Below are positions 17,658 to 35,979 of a stretch of 64,000 nucleotides of DNA, one piece after another. Below the pieces are notes generated by a model that ran no database searches, was not told the DNA's origin, and saw only the letters and a list, made by a program, of their open reading frames with translations. This DNA is from Thermodesulfobacteriota bacterium (lineage in GTDB: Bacteria > Desulfobacterota_D > UBA1144 > Nemesobacterales > UBA2774), in assembly GCA_965216785.1 (NCBI GenBank), contig OZ244197.1, forward strand, positions 2,144,001-2,208,000, written 5' to 3'. Numbering within the stretch: the first letter of the stretch is position 1; each line of letters opens with the position of its first letter. A program made the translations under genes and the position numbers.

Positions 17658-18749
17658 ATGGGACGATTGAGACAGAAACAGGAGATCTGGGGCGAAGTGC
17701 TGACTGACAAGGGATATATGAGAGTGCCGAGGGCGCTGAGGCTCAAAAGGGCCGAGCTTGGGATAAGCAATAATGAATATGCAATATTGCTTGACTATCT
17801 GGACTATTACACTTACTGCGGCGGCCAAAACCCCTACGGGCACCTGGCTCAGGTGAACGGGGTGAGCGAGAGGACTGTGCAGAATACGCTCGGCAAGCTG
17901 GCGCAGAAAGGGCTGATCGGGAGGATCGTGAAAAAACACCCCAGCGGAAGGACCAAGGGGGTCGTTTTCACTATTGAGCCGCTGCTCATAAAGCTTAAGG
18001 GTAGGGTGAAAGATCTTTCACCTACAGAGGGTGAAAAAAACTTCACCTACGAGGGGGAAGAAACCTTCACCCCTAATACTAGAGAAGTAGGTAACAAGAG
18101 TAGAGATAGTAAAAAAAGCTCTCCCGAAGCCCTGCCTGCGGGAGAAGCTGCGGCTAAGCATTCTTATTCGAATGATACTTTAGGGAACTCACTCAGAGAA
18201 ACGAGAGAGCTATATGCCTTGTCGGACGCTGAGACTGGTCCTGAAAACCAAAAGGCCCGGGGACGTAAGAGGAAGAGTAATTCAAAAGACCCTTACAACT
18301 CGACCAGGTGGTACAACGAAGTGTTTTCGGAGATTTACAAAGAGGCTTCGGGGCAGCCCGTGCTGACGGGGGGAAGGGAGTACGGGGCGGCCAGGACCTA
18401 CTTTTCAAGGCTAAGGGAGCTGAACCCTTTGCTCGGCGCAGAGGAGATATACGAGCGGGCAAGTGACGGGGCGCGCTTTATGCTCGAGTCGCAGCTAAGG
18501 GGAGGGGTGTTCGGGTGGATGCACTGCCCGCCCGACATATGCATGCTGTCGGGTCAGGCTCAGGCCGTTGACTATCATTTGAGGAAAACGGTTATAGCGG
18601 GCACGGCAGAGCAGAAAGACTCAAAACCAAAGCAAGTGAAAATTTCCGGAGCCAGAGAGCTCGGGGAAAAGGAGGCTTATTATGCGTCAGAAGAGATCAC
18701 AAGAATTTACGGGGAGCTCAAGGGGCTTCGGGGAGCCAAGGGGCAGTGA
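17658..18749 (+). CDS. Phage-type replication initiator (DnaD/O-like N-terminal winged HTH)
   Basis: GYMRVPRAL..ELGISNNE..LAQVNGVSERTVQNTLGKLAQKGLI; internal iteron-like repeats. Confidence 0.7.
   Translation: MGRLRQKQEIWGEVLTDKGYMRVPRALRLKRAELGISNNEYAILLDYLDYYTYCGGQNPYGHLAQVNGVSERTVQNTLGKLAQKGLIGRIVKKHPSGRTKGVVFTIEPLLIKLKGRVKDLSPTEGEKNFTYEGEETFTPNTREVGNKSRDSKKSSPEALPAGEAAAKHSYSNDTLGNSLRETRELYALSDAETGPENQKARGRKRKSNSKDPYNSTRWYNEVFSEIYKEASGQPVLTGGREYGAARTYFSRLRELNPLLGAEEIYERASDGARFMLESQLRGGVFGWMHCPPDICMLSGQAQAVDYHLRKTVIAGTAEQKDSKPKQVKISGARELGEKEAYYASEEITRIYGELKGLRGAKGQ
18003..18072. repeat. Three 21-bp iteron-like units (GGTGAA-N6-TTCACC), putative origin
   Basis: Units at 18003, 18028 and 18052, each with dyad symmetry. 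Confidence 0.7.
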
Positions 18750-19560
18750 GCGGCAGGTGTCGGAGTTTTTAAGGCGCGGGCAGCGGGCGTACCCGGAGAT
18801 ACGGCGCCGCGATAAAAGGCTTTTGGAAGAGGCGCTTGATTTTCTCTTGAGCGCCGAGGGAATAAATGACCCCGAGGGGACGCTTAAGTCGCTCTTTCAT
18901 GTGTATGAGGAGATAGACCCGTACGCGGATTATATAAAGCCCGGAGAGAGGGAGTTTTTCCCGGCACATAAGCGCGAGCGGACGCTCGAGCGGTTCCTGG
19001 AGGGATTTAAGTACATTTACTACATCCTGCTCAGGGCCCAGGAGAGGCTTTATCTCGCCAATACGTTTGGAGTGTTCTGGGAGCGCTGCGCCGAGTATCT
19101 TCAAAAGTGCGGTTACAAGAACAAGTATATAGATGGCGTATGTGGTAAGGATTCTCTATTTTACAGGCAGAGCTTTAATTACTGGCGGAGTGAGTTTAAG
19201 GACGAAGAAGAGGGGTTTTTGGTGATGTTCGCCTACTTTAAGGCTTGTTTCGGGATAGAGGGGAACGACGTTTACTGCTCGGTCGCGAACAGCCGAGAGA
19301 CTACGTATGACTGGAGGCGTATGAAGGCTTGTTTTGAGAAGCTACGGGACTCTGCAGTAAAAGAGACTGTAGTGCCAGCGCCAAAGTACGAAGAGTGGTC
19401 TGAGAAAAACAAAAGGATGATCCGGCAGAGGATAGAGGCCTACAAGAGGGAGCGCAGCGAGGAGATAAGAAAATCTGAGCAGGTGCTTGAAAATATCAGG
19501 ATACGAAACGAGAAAGAGGGGCATGGGCAGTTTGCGGCGGCAGGCAGCGCACATGGTTAG
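18682..19560 (+). CDS. Hypothetical protein downstream of the initiator
   Basis: 292-aa ORF; true start probably near 18757; no Walker motif seen. Confidence 0.7.
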   Translation: MRQKRSQEFTGSSRGFGEPRGSERQVSEFLRRGQRAYPEIRRRDKRLLEEALDFLLSAEGINDPEGTLKSLFHVYEEIDPYADYIKPGEREFFPAHKRERTLERFLEGFKYIYYILLRAQERLYLANTFGVFWERCAEYLQKCGYKNKYIDGVCGKDSLFYRQSFNYWRSEFKDEEEGFLVMFAYFKACFGIEGNDVYCSVANSRETTYDWRRMKACFEKLRDSAVKETVVPAPKYEEWSEKNKRMIRQRIEAYKRERSEEIRKSEQVLENIRIRNEKEGHGQFAAAGSAHG

Positions 19561-24860: not shown

Positions 24861-25637
24861 TCAATGCCCGCTGTAGCGGCTTTTTTGGGCGGCGGGGATT
24901 GGGGTAACGGGTTTGCAGGTGCGTGCTTCATCGACGGTTCTTTTCATGGTTTCGAGGTTTACCTGGGCTTTTTGGTAGTAAATCGGCAATAGGCCTTCGG
25001 ATTCCCACTTCTCAGCTTCTTCGCAGGGTATGCTCTTCTTAGTCCTTTTCCCGCCTTTTAATACCTTATTGTAATAGAGTACGTCGTTTTCGATCTTCGG
25101 GTCATCGTACCAGTCAAAGAACGACAGGCTTTTGGTCGGGAGGTCAATTATCAAAACCCGCTTGTGGTCACGCCCCGTCCACTGGTCCAGGAAAAGCTGC
25201 TCGCCCAAAAGTCCCACGAACTGGTTGGCTCCCCCGAACTCGCCGGCTTTGATGAAGTAGTAAGCTCTTTTCAGATTTAGATTGCAAGGGTCTTGCACTT
25301 CTTCGGTCTTGAAAATGTAGGTGTTCTGGCCTTCAAAGTCCTTGGACCTGACGGAATATATAGTATAGAAGTCATATACATATGCCTTACCGCTCTCACA
25401 GGTCTTTACCTCCGCAGTTTCAGTGCCGGGAATCAGGGGTACTACCTGCTTGTACTGCTGCTCGTAGGAGAGTGCGGAGGCTGTGGTGAGAAATAAGAAT
25501 GTAAGGAAAATTGATAATGTTATTAAATCCCCCCCCACCTTTAATCCTCCCCCCGCGGGGGGGAGGAGATTAGAAAAAGACAAAAAATGAGATCCCGAAA
25601 CAAGTTCAGGATGACAAGATAAGGATAGTTTTTTCAT
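24861..25637 (-). CDS. Secreted hypothetical protein (paralog of 26813-27463) with REP-derived N-terminal insertions
   Basis: PLIPGT, GGAN.F.GL and DQ.TG shared with the paralog; 4 Cys. Confidence 0.8.
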   Translation of the reverse strand: MKKLSLSCHPELVSGSHFLSFSNLLPPAGGGLKVGGDLITLSIFLTFLFLTTASALSYEQQYKQVVPLIPGTETAEVKTCESGKAYVYDFYTIYSVRSKDFEGQNTYIFKTEEVQDPCNLNLKRAYYFIKAGEFGGANQFVGLLGEQLFLDQWTGRDHKRVLIIDLPTKSLSFFDWYDDPKIENDVLYYNKVLKGGKRTKKSIPCEEAEKWESEGLLPIYYQKAQVNLETMKRTVDEARTCKPVTPIPAAQKSRYSGH

Positions 25638-25690
25638 GAGGGAAAAGGATACCCGGCTTCGTAATACTTCGCCTGGCGTAGCAAGATTAT

Positions 25691-26080
25691 TTCTTCTTTT
25701 GCATGATCACACACGAAGTGTGAATTACTAAAAGATTGCAAAAATCATCGCCTGGACACTCACAAAGTGAGTTTTTACAAATGTGACCTAAGGACTTAGT
25801 AAATTTCTGGCTGCGCGGTATATTGTAGAAACCGTTTGTCAGCACGCACAGCGTGTACGCTAAAAATGAATTCTGTAAGCTAAACCTCCACAATTCCGCC
25901 CACACCCCGTGTGAGGTTTTTAACGCGGACACAGAGTGTCCAATCATACGGTTTCTACATGGCTTATGAGTTAGGGTAAGCAGATAAAGTTCTCATGAAC
26001 CTCATGAGGAATGTAGAAACATTATGTCTGCGGGCACTGCCCGCATTTTCTTAACGCTATTTATGTATGTCGGAAGCTTA
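25691..26080 (+). ncRNA. Large structured repeated element, copy 1 (candidate ncRNA or non-autonomous element)
   Basis: High identity with 35501-35886 and 27553-27832; at least 7 stems; compensatory changes. Confidence 0.55.
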
Positions 26081-26109
26081 AAAGCAAAGACAACGGCAAA
26101 AGAAAATGA

Positions 26110-26138
26110 TGAGATCCCGGATCGGTGTCCGGGATAAC
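26110..26138. repeat. REP-like palindrome GAGATCCCGGATC..TCCGGGAT(G/A)AC
   Basis: Copies at 20746-20776, 23775-23800, 24254-24305 and 25589-25616. Confidence 0.8.
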
Positions 26139-26259
26139 AATGTAATGGCTCTATTTTCATTCCGAAAAAAATACCAGAGTTTCCGGTCTTGCAATGTAAG
26201 GGCAATTGTTATTAGAATTGAGGGTATAGTATTGATAATCCAGTCAGCAGGAGGGTGTT

Positions 26260-26781
26260 ATGAGCTTAAGAAAATTACTATTGATGTTACCGTTGCTGCT
26301 GTTTCTTGGGACCACAGCGTGCGATAACGACAACAGCAGTAACGCGCAGGATATGGAGCCTGACCCGGCGCCTGTGCAAGCCAAGACCACTGTAACGGGC
26401 AAGGTGATCCCGCCCGGAAGCGATAGCTGCAATGGAATGTTTCCAGGGTTTATGGACGGGGACGATGTGGAAATCGATGTCAATTCTAACGGAGGACCGT
26501 CCGGAACCGCGACTATTATGGTTAATCAGGGGACAGACGGGATGATAGCGTGCTCGGCTGACGGCGCGGGGCTAGAGATTGTGGATTCGCCGCCAATATC
26601 TAATATTATTTGTGAGGTAATGTCGGTATCGAGCGAGTTTACGGGAGTCAGCAATGGAGACCTGCTTCAATTTGCGGTCTTCTTTTCAGGTGAATCGCCC
26701 GTACAGAAGCAGGCGGTTGTAATTGTCATGGATCAATGCGCTGTTATAGGAATCGAAAACCTTAACGCGAACTCTTCTTAG
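26260..26781 (+). CDS. Lipoprotein, hypothetical
   Basis: AGGAGG RBS; lipobox TTAC. Confidence 0.75.
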   Translation: MSLRKLLLMLPLLLFLGTTACDNDNSSNAQDMEPDPAPVQAKTTVTGKVIPPGSDSCNGMFPGFMDGDDVEIDVNSNGGPSGTATIMVNQGTDGMIACSADGAGLEIVDSPPISNIICEVMSVSSEFTGVSNGDLLQFAVFFSGESPVQKQAVVIVMDQCAVIGIENLNANSS

Positions 26782-26812
26782 AAAACTGGTCAACGAAGAT
26801 TTCTAATATGGA

Positions 26813-27463
26813 TTACTGGCCCGGTCTGCAGCGGTATTTGTCGAGCGCTTCTTTTTTCCCGGTCTCAAGGTTGTAGGCAGTCTGTCGTTGGTAGTGTGTT
26901 CTTAGTCCCTGCATAGCCCAGTCGCCTAGCAGGATGCATTGGTTCCCGGCGTTATAGAACTCACGGGGGTGGACGGTCTCAAAATAGGTGAGGGTACCGT
27001 CAGAGAGCACAGGGTCTGTGTAGTTGGTGAAATACTGCAGTTTTCCACTCTTAAGATCGTATATGGAAAGTCCCCTGTAGGTAGGGCCCGTGCCCTGGTC
27101 GATGAACAGGTAGTCAACGTACAGCCCGGCGAAGAAGTTGGCTCCGCCCAATACGTCGTTGTCGTACGTGTAGAGGGGCTCTCGCGCGGCTGTCTTGCAC
27201 AGCCTGCCGTCTTTCTTGTCCGTATGGTAAACGTTAATGTTCTCCCCGGACAGCTGCTTTGTAGGAATCGTATATATTGTATATTCTTTATATCTATATA
27301 CTGTGCCGTTACCGCACTTTTTGACATGGGGCGTGTCAGTGCCGGGTATGAGCGGGATTAGCTGCGCCGCGTCCTCGGGAAGCTCTGGGTCGGCAGAGCG
27401 GGCGGTGAGCGGGATAATGAATAGTAGTGCAATGACTAGGGTTATATGGGTTATCGTGTTCAT
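26813..27463 (-). CDS. Secreted hypothetical protein (paralog of 24861-25637)
   Basis: Signal peptide; shared motifs and Cys pattern. Confidence 0.8.
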   Translation of the reverse strand: MNTITHITLVIALLFIIPLTARSADPELPEDAAQLIPLIPGTDTPHVKKCGNGTVYRYKEYTIYTIPTKQLSGENINVYHTDKKDGRLCKTAAREPLYTYDNDVLGGANFFAGLYVDYLFIDQGTGPTYRGLSIYDLKSGKLQYFTNYTDPVLSDGTLTYFETVHPREFYNAGNQCILLGDWAMQGLRTHYQRQTAYNLETGKKEALDKYRCRPGQ

Positions 27464-27552
27464 TTAAAAAAGGATACGTACAGAGGGGGTAGAATCAAGA
27501 ATCATTTAATGTTTGCACATTATCTTTTAACGATACTCAAATATACAACTTT

Positions 27553-27832
27553 TTCTTCTTTTGAGTGATCACACACGAAGTGTGACTTACTAAAAGATTG
27601 CAAAAATCACCGACTGGACACTCACAAAGTGAGTTTTTAGAAATGTACCTAAATAACGGGGCTAATTTCGGACAGCATAACGTTATGTAGAAATCGAATG
27701 TCTGCACGCACAGCGTGTACGCTAAAAGTTAATTATTCTGGCGGAACCTTATAATTCCTCCCCACCCGGTATAAGGTTCTTAACGCCATTCTAATTAACC
27801 TTCTTAACGCTATTTATGTATGTCGGAAACTT
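27553..27832 (+). ncRNA. Large structured repeated element, copy 2 (internally shortened)
   Basis: Same 5' stems and same 3' block GCTATTTATGTATGTCGGAA; lacks a ~110-nt module. Confidence 0.5.
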
Positions 27833-28182
27833 AAACACAAAAGAATAAGAAAAAGGATATAGTGCCAGATCAAGTAAGTTCTTGAGTTATAATGTGCCAA
27901 AAGAAACAAATTTACGTGAGTGTTGCTTTTTTAAATAAATCCGACTAATATAATACTAAATAATAGCAAATTTGTATTTGCGGCGGGAATCGGAAGGCGT
28001 GGAACCCTAAATTCGATTAGCCGTTTCGAAGGGGGATGGCGGATGAACAATCATCCCCTTCAGCACTCTGGAGTTACTGCGCATCATATTGGTGTATCCT
28101 GAAAAAGTTTTTCTTAAACGATTGCATCTCAAAACAAGCTCAATATACTTTGAGTATTAAGATTTTTACTAACGGAGGAACT

Positions 28183-28617
28183 ATGTCACGTTATATTGGA
28201 GTATTATTAATCGCGGTAATCGCGCTCTGTGCCTATAACGCGCACGGAGAGGACGGCGTGTTAACGATTAAACCGGGTGTGTATAAGATTACGGGTAAGA
28301 CTACGACGAATCTGGATGAAAAGCCGCAAGTAAAGACTTCGGAGGTTTGCATACCGGTGTCTGAGATTAGACCGGAGACCATGCTGCCCGATAAAGACAC
28401 ATGCACTATTGATAACATTAAGAGCTCGGAGAATAAAGCGAGTTTTGATCTCCAGTGCAAGGGCCCGGACGGGACTTCCTCGCTCAAGGGTAAGGCCGAG
28501 TACAGCACTGCCCAGGATTCTTTTAAATTTAAATTCAACCTTGACGGCGTTACGTCGGGAAAAGAAATAAAAGTTAACTCAGAGGGAAGCGCTAAGCGCA
28601 CGGGCGACTGTCCATAG
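28183..28617 (+). CDS. DUF3617 family secreted protein
   Basis: IKPGVYKIT..CI..C..C..KRTGDC; GGAGG RBS. Confidence 0.85.
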   Translation: MSRYIGVLLIAVIALCAYNAHGEDGVLTIKPGVYKITGKTTTNLDEKPQVKTSEVCIPVSEIRPETMLPDKDTCTIDNIKSSENKASFDLQCKGPDGTSSLKGKAEYSTAQDSFKFKFNLDGVTSGKEIKVNSEGSAKRTGDCP

Positions 28618-28740
28618 GGGTGTACGCAGAGGAATATTCAAACTTCGATTCAAAAAACAGCCGTCCAAAAAAAGATTGAATACCGCATCTTAACTGAATA
28701 TACTTTCACACTAAAATTACTATTTGGGAGGAGAATACAA

Positions 28741-29184
28741 ATGAAGCGCCAATGGCGAGTGGCATTTGCCGCAAGTGCTCTATTAATCTTAGCAGGGGTT
28801 ATGTTCCACAGCGATTCCTGGGCTCAAAACGAGCCGAAAATCAAGCCCGGTAAATATGAGATTATGACCAAGATGAGGTCGAGTCTGGATAACGCGCTTT
28901 CCAAAAAGACAATTGAGAGGTGCATAGAGGGCAATACTATAAACCCGCAGTCGTTCCTGCCCGATCAAGAAAGATGCAACCTGACAAACCTGAAAAAAGA
29001 AGGGAATAAATCGAGCTTTGATATGAAGTGCACTTCACCGAACGGTATGGATCTTACCGGGCATATGGAATACACCGTGCAAGAGACTTCTTTTTCCTAT
29101 AAGTTTCAGCTGCAGGCCCCACATAACGGCGGCACGTTTGAGGTAAACTCCGAAGGCGACGCGAAACGGATAGGGGATTGTTAG
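28741..29184 (+). CDS. DUF3617 family secreted protein
   Basis: IKPGKYEI..KRIGDC. Confidence 0.85.
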   Translation: MKRQWRVAFAASALLILAGVMFHSDSWAQNEPKIKPGKYEIMTKMRSSLDNALSKKTIERCIEGNTINPQSFLPDQERCNLTNLKKEGNKSSFDMKCTSPNGMDLTGHMEYTVQETSFSYKFQLQAPHNGGTFEVNSEGDAKRIGDC

Positions 29185-29247
29185 AAATACCATGTTCCCG
29201 GCAATAGTTAAAGCCGGTTTGTAAACAGATATGAGGGGGTTTTAATA

Positions 29248-29694
29248 ATGTCAAATTACCGAAATATTCTAATTGCCGGAGCTATGCTCCTGTGCTTTAT
29301 GTACGGCTCTTCTTGGGCTGAGGAATATAAAAGTATAAAAATCCAGCCTGGAAACTATGAGTTTACGGAAACAAGCTCGTCCACCCAAAACCCTGATGAA
29401 GTGGTCAAAAAGACAGACAACTGCGTGAAGAACGATGAGATCGAACCCGCGAGCAAGATGGCCGAAAGAGATGGGTGTGAGATAAGTAACTATAAGAGCA
29501 AGGACAACGCGCTCAGTTTTGATTTTGTTTGTAAGAATGTAAAAGCGTCTAGCACCACCAGCGGCTCGATCGAGTACGTCGTGTCGGGTGAAGAAATTTC
29601 CTGGAAAAAGGCTATTAAGACAGAGTTTGAGGAAGGCGGGGATTTTTCAGTGAAATCAGCCGGAAAGGCGGTAAGAAAAGGAAACTGCAGCTAA
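29248..29694 (+). CDS. DUF3617 family secreted protein
   Basis: IQPGNYEF..RKGNC. Confidence 0.82.
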   Translation: MSNYRNILIAGAMLLCFMYGSSWAEEYKSIKIQPGNYEFTETSSSTQNPDEVVKKTDNCVKNDEIEPASKMAERDGCEISNYKSKDNALSFDFVCKNVKASSTTSGSIEYVVSGEEISWKKAIKTEFEEGGDFSVKSAGKAVRKGNCS

Positions 29695-29713
29695 ATTTTG
29701 CTGCGCTGAAAGG

Positions 29714-30193
29714 ATGGAGAAGCTAAAAATGAGGAATTTAATGCTAATGACCGCGCTGATTGTGCTGTCACAGCTTGCGTTTACGGACGCGCGGGCCCAA
29801 GACGCCAAGCTGCCGATAACCCCTGGAATGTATACGGTCACGAGCAAAACTAGCTCGAACCTGAATCCCGAACCTAAAGTCAAGATTATAGACATATGTA
29901 TTGATGATAACGTCTTAGACCCGAGCGATTATCTCCCGAGCGTCGCGCAGTGCTCACTGGATAATGTGAAAAAAGACGGGAACAAAGCCAATTTCGATAT
30001 TGCTTGCAAGAGTACGAAGCGATCGGAAGACGGCTCTCCGGGAATGCCGGAGATGAATGGCAAGGGAGACTGCAGCACTACTGATTCCGGGCTTTACTGC
30101 CACTTTCAGATGATCCTGCCGCTGCAGGGTAAGGAGTTTACAATAGATTCCGTAAGAGAGGGGAGGCGTATCGGGGAGTGCCCCGAACTCTAG
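29714..30193 (+). CDS. DUF3617 family secreted protein
   Basis: ITPGMYTV..RRIGEC. Confidence 0.82.
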   Translation: MEKLKMRNLMLMTALIVLSQLAFTDARAQDAKLPITPGMYTVTSKTSSNLNPEPKVKIIDICIDDNVLDPSDYLPSVAQCSLDNVKKDGNKANFDIACKSTKRSEDGSPGMPEMNGKGDCSTTDSGLYCHFQMILPLQGKEFTIDSVREGRRIGECPEL

Positions 30194-35500: not shown

Positions 35501-35886
35501 CTTCTTTTGCATGATCACACACGAAGTGTGAATTACTAAAAGATTACAAAAATCACCGACTGAACACTAACAAGGTGAGTTTTTACAAATGCGCCCTAAG
35601 GACTGAGTAAATTTCTGTCTGCGCGGTATATTGTAGAAACCGTTTGTCAGCACGCACAGCGTGTACGCTAAAAATGAATGTAGTTGTATGATCCTTATAA
35701 TTCCACCCACACCCCGTATAAGGTTTTTAACGCGGACACAGAGTGTCCATTCATACGGTTTCTGCGAAGCTAATAAGTTAGGACAAATAGAAGAGGTTCT
35801 TATGAACCTGAAAAGGAATAGAGAAACAGTATGCCTGCGGGCTCTGCCCGCATTTTCTTTGCGCTATTTATGTATGTCGGAAACTT
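35501..35886 (+). ncRNA. Large structured repeated element, copy 3
   Basis: Colinear with copy 1 over ~385 nt; lies between convergent genes. Confidence 0.55.
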
Positions 35887-35979
35887 TTCACCCTACGGGT
35901 GATTTAGCCTAGTTGCAGTTATATTAGACCTAGAGATTATTTAGAACTTTCCCGGAATAATAGCCGCTGCTAAATTAGT

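Follow-up and report, generated by a model that had tools for sequence, protein, structure and literature searches.

Copies of the element in the window

The window analysed here, a 64,000-nucleotide stretch of the genome of a Thermodesulfobacteriota bacterium, contains three colinear copies of a non-coding element on the plus strand. Copy 1 (positions 25693–26075) and copy 3 (35501–35882), the latter located between convergent genes, are composed of a conserved core and three inserts, designated A, B, and C; copy 2 (27555–27828) comprises the core with inserts A and B. Copies 3 and 2 are 87% and 80% identical to copy 1 (E-values of 1e-131 and 9e-52, respectively). These refined coordinates agree with the places given in the original prediction, and all the hairpins that it named are present in the copies. 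Copy 1 is more stable than 100 of 100 shuffled sequences on both strands (z-scores of −3.5 for plus and −3.3 for minus). The unique flanks are joined to each of the three copies with 0 differences in contigs from four public sequencing runs of one study; therefore, the copies are not an assembly artefact.

Copy 1 has a CGTC-type REP-like palindrome, belonging to a separate repeat family, upstream (25589–25615) and another downstream (26111–26138); both were identified from the sequence and a motif census and have no strand assigned. Copy 3 is directly followed by a TCACCCT...GGGTGA palindrome (35888–35902, plus strand), and at least 6 of the 16 full copies in the genome have such a hairpin after them. 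Two paralogous genes for unknown secreted-type proteins on the minus strand (24861–25637 and 26813–27463) each start beside the end hairpin of a copy, and the gene between them (26260–26781) is absent from the same-genus genome G002. Four similar small secreted-type open reading frames are arranged in tandem at 28036–30193. Two open reading frames at 17658–19560 resemble a plasmid or phage replication pair; NCBIfam gave no match to them.

Conserved core and modular inserts

The host genome (G000; 3.12 Mb, 92% complete) contains 16 full copies of the element in five insert combinations, together with two fragments, rather than only the three copies initially reported. Ten of the 16 are insert-free cores with a length of 164–166 nt. 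The remaining ones carry insert A (one copy), A and B (one, copy 2), A and C (one), or A, B, and C (three: copies 1, 3, and one more). The form of about 390 nt, which had been taken for the unit, is a composite, probably a core that has collected three inserts, and the conserved unit is the core of 165 nt. In a regular-expression census of 118 distinct Dadabacteria-type copies, 73 lack inserts, and two further insert types are present in relatives.

Read on the plus strand, the core consists of a terminal A-tract hairpin, the linker CAAAAATCA, and a rod, and its ends are CTTCTTTT and TGTCGG. The rod is AT-rich and 55 bp long. From the outside in, it is formed by an outer stem, box 1, a 13-bp middle stem, box 2, an inner stem, and a variable apex. 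The two boxes are conserved, bulged, and positioned 20 bp apart; box 1 is GCTAAAAAT opposite ATTTTCTTAACGC, and box 2 is CTAAA opposite TTTTTAACG. In copy 1, the terminal hairpin (CTTCTTTT...AAAAG), whose loop contains insert A, occupies positions 25693–25738, and the linker that connects it to the rod 25739–25747. Positions 25859–25886 contain the covarying arm of the middle stem, bordered by the 5' halves of box 1 (GCTAAAAAT) and of box 2 (GCTAAA). The inner stem and C-rich apical loop follow (25887–25916); this is the predicted stem that is CACA/TGTG in copy 1 and TATA/TATA in copies 2 and 3. The 3' half of box 2 (TTTTTAACGC, with GT bulged on the minus strand) is at 25917–25926, and the 3' half of box 1 (TTTTCTTAACGC) and the 3' arm of the outer stem extend over 26046–26075 to the terminal TGTCGG. 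All of these segments are given on the plus strand.

Insert A (25709–25729, plus strand), present in 6 of the 16 genomic copies, is a hairpin of about 21 nt with a triloop or pentaloop, which also occurs, reversed, in adjoining TCACCCT-type REPs (loci L332, L018, and L044). Insert B (25758–25855, plus strand) is positioned in the 5' arm of the outer stem, and insert C (25927–26045, plus strand), which ends in a terminator-like hairpin and a T run, separates the 3' halves of the two boxes; each is found in 4 of the 16 copies. In the host genome, B and C occur only within copies of the element. They have the same build of hairpin, stem-loop, and hairpin, and a 29-nt segment common to both (score 30; 2 of 500 shuffles score as high) indicates weak homology.

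Covariation and box spacing

The rod is under selection: the sequence and spacing of the boxes are fixed, and the stem pairs are freely swapped. In an alignment of 21 sequences, all less than 85% identical, 87.6% of the cells of a 25-pair structure are paired, compared with 73.4% in shuffles and 34–47% in controls with slid pairing. The structure contains 84 two-sided changes versus 31.9 in shuffles, a number that 0 of 500 shuffles reach, which bears out the selection on structure proposed in the original prediction. RNAalifold recovers the same rod unaided, with the register slipped at box 1. The invariance of the boxes is partly by construction, because the boxes served to collect the sequences; the covariation of the stems and the spacing are free of this circularity. 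Among metagenome loci, 114 of 132 matches to a pattern of the two 3' box halves are 32–34 nt long, though the pattern permitted 28–45 nt (8–25 nt between the halves). Of 99 parsed copies, 76 have a distance of 20 nt between the 5' box halves.

No match to the element above the gathering score was found in Rfam, as had been anticipated, be it to tmRNA, RNase P, 6S, SRP, HEARO, group II introns, Flavo-1, or any other family. The window gave 0 matches (the best E-value, at 25500–28000, was 2.2), and in 20 loci that contain uninterrupted cores and 20 that contain relatives, the element itself matched no family.

Strand preference of the core and inserts

The core folds best on the minus strand. 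Among 35 dereplicated cores from the 76 with the commonest box spacing, the minus strand is more stable in 31 with RNA parameters and in 32 with DNA parameters; z-scores against shuffles agree with this preference, and the energy gap between the strands is larger under RNA than under DNA parameters. The uninterrupted rod of copy 2 fits the covariance model on the minus strand (27703–27827, 68.6 bits). The mismatches in the middle stem are skewed in the same direction. When read on the plus strand, pyrimidine–pyrimidine and A–C mismatches outnumber purine–purine and G–T mismatches by 41 to 10 in 15 types from Dadabacteria (p = 1.5e-5), by 82 to 17 in 31 types from metagenomes (p = 2e-11), and by 7 to 4 in four types from Chryseobacterium. 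Therefore, the mismatches tolerated on the minus strand are purine–purine or G–T, which identifies it as the folding strand. Mutation bias of the leading strand would be expected to put G–T on the plus strand, so the skew appears to reflect selection. The folding asymmetry by itself does not distinguish DNA from RNA.

By contrast, all 14 of 14 variants of insert C fold better on the plus strand, and insert B varies (3 of 6 when RNA parameters are used). The plus-strand preference originally ascribed to the whole element thus holds for insert C and for the helix joining B and C, but not for the conserved core. This helix, predicted as a 12-bp long-range pairing, joins insert B to insert C: 12–14 of its 15 pairs are kept on the plus strand in five of five copies having both inserts, with G–T wobbles and one two-sided change. 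However, it needs both inserts, which only 3 of the 16 copies in the host genome have, and is absent from the other 13, and the plus-strand minimum free energy structure of copy 1 lacks it and pairs B and C locally. The helix can be attributed to the similarity of B and C, although it is not dismissed, because its pairs are kept in all five copies. The inserts A, B, and C are nested modules of hairpins that have a strand preference of their own.

The original prediction offered two readings, a large RNA of 390 nt encoded on the plus strand and a non-autonomous element mobilised in trans, of which the second is the better supported and the first is not supported. The RNA of a trans-acting family of structured non-coding RNAs could be one of two kinds: the 165-nt core, made from the minus strand, or the long form, made from the plus strand, in which the B–C helix would compete with the rod. 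Purine-rich mismatches and G–U pairs are typical of RNA, and the strong covariation, the larger strand gap with RNA parameters, the maintained B–C helix, and the retention of some positions across genera would all fit such a family. However, the core and insert C favour opposite strands, which argues against a single RNA: one transcript does not easily favour both strands, but nested DNA modules can. Only a minority of copies have the composite long form, and most Dadabacteria-type copies are insert-free; an RNA from the minus strand would oppose replication at most loci; promoter-like sites at the ends of the copies are not in excess (3 found versus 4.2 expected); and copies are gained, lost, and arranged in tandem arrays. 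An RNA family is thus unlikely, and the element is probably not a new RNA gene.

Distribution across genomes

The same core occurs in Dadabacteria, in prophages of Dadabacteria, and in Bacteroidota, and the insert-free end hairpin motif was found at 160 or more loci in GTDB genomes of Dadabacteria and Bacteroidota. The box patterns are present in at least 20 of 81 genomes of the order of the host and, as an exact pattern, in at least 6 of 351 Bacteroidota; the covariance model detects the element in at least 6 of 101 Bacteroidia. The pattern counts are lower bounds, because the exact pattern of the 3' arm missed three named Bacteroidota genomes with diverged subfamilies.

The apical motif of the Bacteroidota copies led to 22 loci in a viral collection, many with the same end hairpin and rod, and one of these loci matches 146 plasmid records, 134 of them from Ralstonia. 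A search of the plasmid collection with copy 1 and with a Flavobacterium-like copy gave no match. The Ralstonia relatives are arranged as inverted pairs, among which interiors have been swapped and deletions have occurred. Their short alleles were considered as pre-insertion sites and rejected, as they are deletions between inverted copies. The covariance model gives a score to loci L373, L378, and L380 and to none of the Ralstonia, Pasteurellaceae-like, or Pedobacter loci; therefore, the wider link to Ralstonia and similar relatives is one of shared motifs.

Genomic setting and orientation relative to replication

The genes neighbouring the element are found in all four orientations, often have housekeeping functions, and belong to no recurring family except at orthologous sites, which agrees with the earlier view that the element is not a cis-acting leader. 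In the host genome, 7 of the 18 copies or fragments are located in divergent gaps. Among the metagenome gaps with both neighbours called, 1 of 44 is divergent and 17 are convergent. The avoidance of divergent gaps in the metagenome set, the terminator-like hairpin at the end of insert C, the retention of old sites, and the failure to find an enzyme would be expected of a cis element that the host keeps as a terminator, a stabiliser of mRNA, or a binding site for a protein. Such an element would need no dedicated enzyme, its spread being due only to ordinary recombination, slippage, and gene conversion. We consider this improbable, since divergent gaps are well occupied in the host genome, the presence of the element in its order and in Bacteroidota is patchy, dispersed new sites require a mobilising step, and boxes that are invariant across phyla suggest a dedicated reader.

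The orientation of the element is linked to that of replication. The GC skew of the flanks is positive on the plus strand of the element at 56 of 62 loci, which are clustered and not independent. Twelve of the 16 copies in the host genome follow the KOPS polarity; of the other four, three have a local fourfold-site skew of matching sign and one a mixed skew. Among eight Pedobacter regions, the arrays agree with the skew at the five in which it is strong. The mixed metagenome set shows a weak bias (36 of 54), and the orientation of Chryseobacterium-type loci is mixed or opposite. Where the bias holds, in Dadabacteria and the examined Pedobacter regions, the minus strand of the element is the lagging-strand sequence. 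Fourfold-site skew and KOPS polarity are discordant in the host genome around 161 kb, 2248 kb, and 2772 kb, which suggests rearrangements.

Turnover at orthologous sites

Genome G002 carries the element at all three of the window sites, but in other forms: a 5' stub, a deleted form with inserts A and B, and a short core, which occupies the orthologous site of copy 3. Thirteen sites filled in G001 or G002 are empty in the host genome, and three of these empty sites retain a neighbouring REP-type hairpin. The comparison of relatives revealed gain and loss at orthologous sites, but no clean empty site. The sequences at the 13 sites are only about 80% identical, which makes the junctions unreadable, and no target motif is defined. 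At one site of a Chryseobacterium-like genus, compared in 46 genomes, 25 of the best 30 matching loci are filled, one is internally deleted, and four lack the element; the filled loci have several fully compensated interiors. Such gain, loss, and replacement of copies between close relatives further weaken the reading as a large non-coding RNA.

A segment of 71 nt in copy 1 is identical to a short copy 62 kb away. Tandem arrays with periods of 310–470 nt are present; one from Pedobacter (L350, 8700–11300) has about seven tandem units of 370 nt, each made of a diverged element and a CGTC-type REP. Many sites are old and retained across species, and some positions are kept across genera, such as that after the portal gene in loci L186, L191, and L416. 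Retained old sites are also compatible with a function for the host.

Search for a partner enzyme

No transposase, reverse transcriptase, integrase, or other mobile-element enzyme is encoded by the 78 scanned neighbours of the copies (113 were listed). The two partial copies in the host genome were followed as a lead to a mobile gene and rejected, as none was reached. Similarly, no mobile-element enzyme is present among 48 scanned open reading frames of 209 from regions dense in copies, and the inverted arrays in genome G293, considered as carriers of a partner gene, enclose housekeeping genes.

The host genome, at 92% completeness, has no match to Y1_Tnp, GIY-YIG, or RVT_1. A GIY-YIG match is present in 78 of the 81 genomes of the order, and the host genome lacks even one of the UvrC type; it may therefore be missing a region. 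The presence of GIY-YIG does not discriminate carriers of the element, and the family was set aside as a partner on this basis. Small stand-alone GIY-YIG genes (about 95 amino acids) of Dadabacteria (L403, L404, L405, L406, L408, L411, and L414) have inverted CGTC-type REP palindromes on both sides in a REPtron-like layout; they were rejected as partners, as they are flanked by these repeats and not by the element. Passages in one study describe CGTC repeats as seeming to have no dedicated transposase (PMC3733652).

Genes of the Y1 family are absent from the host genome and present in one of five relatives, and an element copy is nearby at only 1 of 28 Y1 loci. The Y1 gene beside that copy was rejected as a partner, because its family occurs in 0 of 32 genomes of the element-rich family f1 and is thus anti-correlated with the element. 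In family f8, 37 of 37 genomes encode this Y1 family (L546–L566), which carries a C-terminal extension, and almost always in single copy; it looks domesticated. Atypical structures flank the Bacteroidetes Y1 subclass 2.6, according to parts of the report on it (PMC6006769); no element copy lies beside the 12 Bacteroidota Y1 loci that were looked at. The host genome has 15 matches to tyrosine recombinases, none at a copy. Short tyrosine recombinases with open frames of 211–221 amino acids are located at 870977, 1163454, and 1289455.

Neither terminal inverted repeats nor target-site duplications are present in the flanks of the 16 genomic copies, as had been noted for the window. Their absence distinguishes the element from the MITEs of DDE insertion sequences, which are likewise short, non-coding, dispersed, and internally variable. 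The missing terminal repeats, the replication-linked orientation, the RNA-compatible fold, and the replacement of resident copies might also be accounted for by a SINE-like element that is copied from RNA by a reverse transcriptase acting in trans and inserted at the replication fork. Group II introns retrotranspose into the lagging-strand template. However, that route would place the RNA sense on the plus strand, and the core folds on the minus strand; moreover, there is no RVT_1 in the host genome, no reverse transcriptase among the scanned neighbours, and no target-site duplication. A SINE-like origin is thus hardly probable.

Comparison with known repeats and proposed mechanism

The element is best read as a family of non-autonomous structured DNA repeats, REPIN/BIME-like and with a strand asymmetry resembling that of attC, that has apparently not been described before. 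A literature search, with subscription journals and picture-only supplements outside its coverage, gave no description of it. The element works like REPINs and BIMEs and physically resembles attC sites, but lacks the defining features of both.

Mosaics with other repeats and concerted evolution are among the traits of REP, REPIN, and BIME sequences described in parts of several studies (PMC3116915, PMC3337134, PMC3733652). Like these RAYT-associated sequences, the element is non-autonomous, intergenic, hairpin-forming, and multi-copy, and it shows concerted evolution and forms tandem arrays, mosaics with other repeats, and, in the Ralstonia relatives, inverted pairs. Unlike them, it has no GTAG/GTGG or CGTC foot, does not consist of two inverted REPs, and flanks no RAYT gene. 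It further differs in its AT-rich 55-bp rod, two fixed bulged boxes, and separate end hairpin, and in having one orientation relative to replication in Dadabacteria.

Extrahelical bases and a purine and G–T skew favour one strand of attC, as set out in sections of one study (PMC5027507), and passages in another assign the favoured strand to the template of the leading strand for most sedentary integrons (PMC5371416). With solo attC sites and CALINs, the element shares an imperfect rod hairpin read by structure. In both, the stems and the apex of the rod vary, the extrahelical bases of one arm are fixed, one strand has the purine and G–T skew, and the favoured strand is positioned on the leading-strand template. 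It could accordingly be imagined as an attC-like site that serves a cassette system not recognised so far, with excision and shuffling of the genes between direct repeats, and a prophage-like block in genome G021, with about 18 same-strand copies between its genes, is much reduced in four relatives, including the host genome. However, the paired RYYYAAC/GTTRRRY box is lacking; the GTT boxes, 20 bp apart, are direct repeats on one arm, with each GTT opposite AGC or bulged. Integron integrases (TIGR02249) exceed the cut-off in 0 of 5 genomes, and there are no promoterless cassettes in one orientation; the flanking genes, often housekeeping, point in all orientations, and deletions between direct repeats need no special enzyme. 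A cassette system is therefore very doubtful.

The element is instead fairly likely to spread as non-autonomous, folded single-stranded DNA by means of an enzyme acting in trans, with entry as lagging-strand DNA at the fork and overwriting through the boxes. We infer that a structure-specific nuclease or recombinase, of the HUH/Y1, GIY-YIG, or tyrosine-recombinase type, would bind the two bulges, which would be on the same face, at a distance of about two turns of DNA. The bound enzyme might release or copy the folded strand. As DNA of the lagging strand, the copy could then be taken in at the replication fork; it would either land beside other REP-type hairpins or overwrite a resident copy, to which it would anneal by means of the conserved boxes. 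Such overwriting would explain why inserts A, B, and C appear and vanish at one site. The active strand of IS200/IS605 ends and PATE-like elements is on the lagging-strand template, and these elements have subterminal hairpins and a tetranucleotide target. The element has an orientation bias, but its better-folding strand is on the leading-strand template.

We tentatively suggest, as a bolder and rather less probable proposal, that these repeats are a cross-phylum class of single-stranded DNA sites that are read by structure, with the physics of attC but no integron integrase, that a yet undiscovered nuclease or recombinase inserts and overwrites them at the fork, and that the sites act as replaceable slots for nested hairpin modules. 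The family is widespread, unannotated, and sharply defined; the combination of invariant boxes, fixed spacing, and stem pairs that covary freely suggests that a specific, yet undiscovered protein reads it. Structure-specific enzymes acting on single-stranded DNA, such as IntI and TnpA, are few and useful; therefore, the orphan substrate and its covariance model provide a handle for finding another. Repeats of this kind can be mistaken for large non-coding RNAs in covariation screens, and strain series allow the replacement of the interior of a repeat to be followed at a fixed site.

Two other groups of repeats can be set beside the element. Intergenic repeat families R200 and R26 of Pseudomonas fluorescens, with lengths of 320–352 bp, are listed as of unknown origin in parts of one report (PMC2718517). 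They are likewise long intergenic repeats, compared here by description only, and may bear on the novelty of the element. The connection would presumably be to the looser Ralstonia-type relatives. If R200 and R26 are homologous, a wider superfamily had been listed before, without structure or mechanism. Flavo-1 (Rfam RF01705) of Bacteroidetes is described in sections of its report as a covarying hairpin with conserved internal loops and no known function (PMC2864571). The element is also a covarying hairpin with conserved internal loops, but the consensus of Flavo-1 is different and it has no match on the element; one Flavo-1 adjoins an element copy in locus L280.

The block that is rich in copies in genome G021 (contig C1, 228–272 kb; L416–L418) corresponds to 2229766–2232624 of the host genome. 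It is prophage- or GTA-like, follows EamA-like genes, and has no integrase that could be seen; its genes include those for a terminase, portal, tail terminator, and tail tube, and a long tape-measure-like open reading frame.
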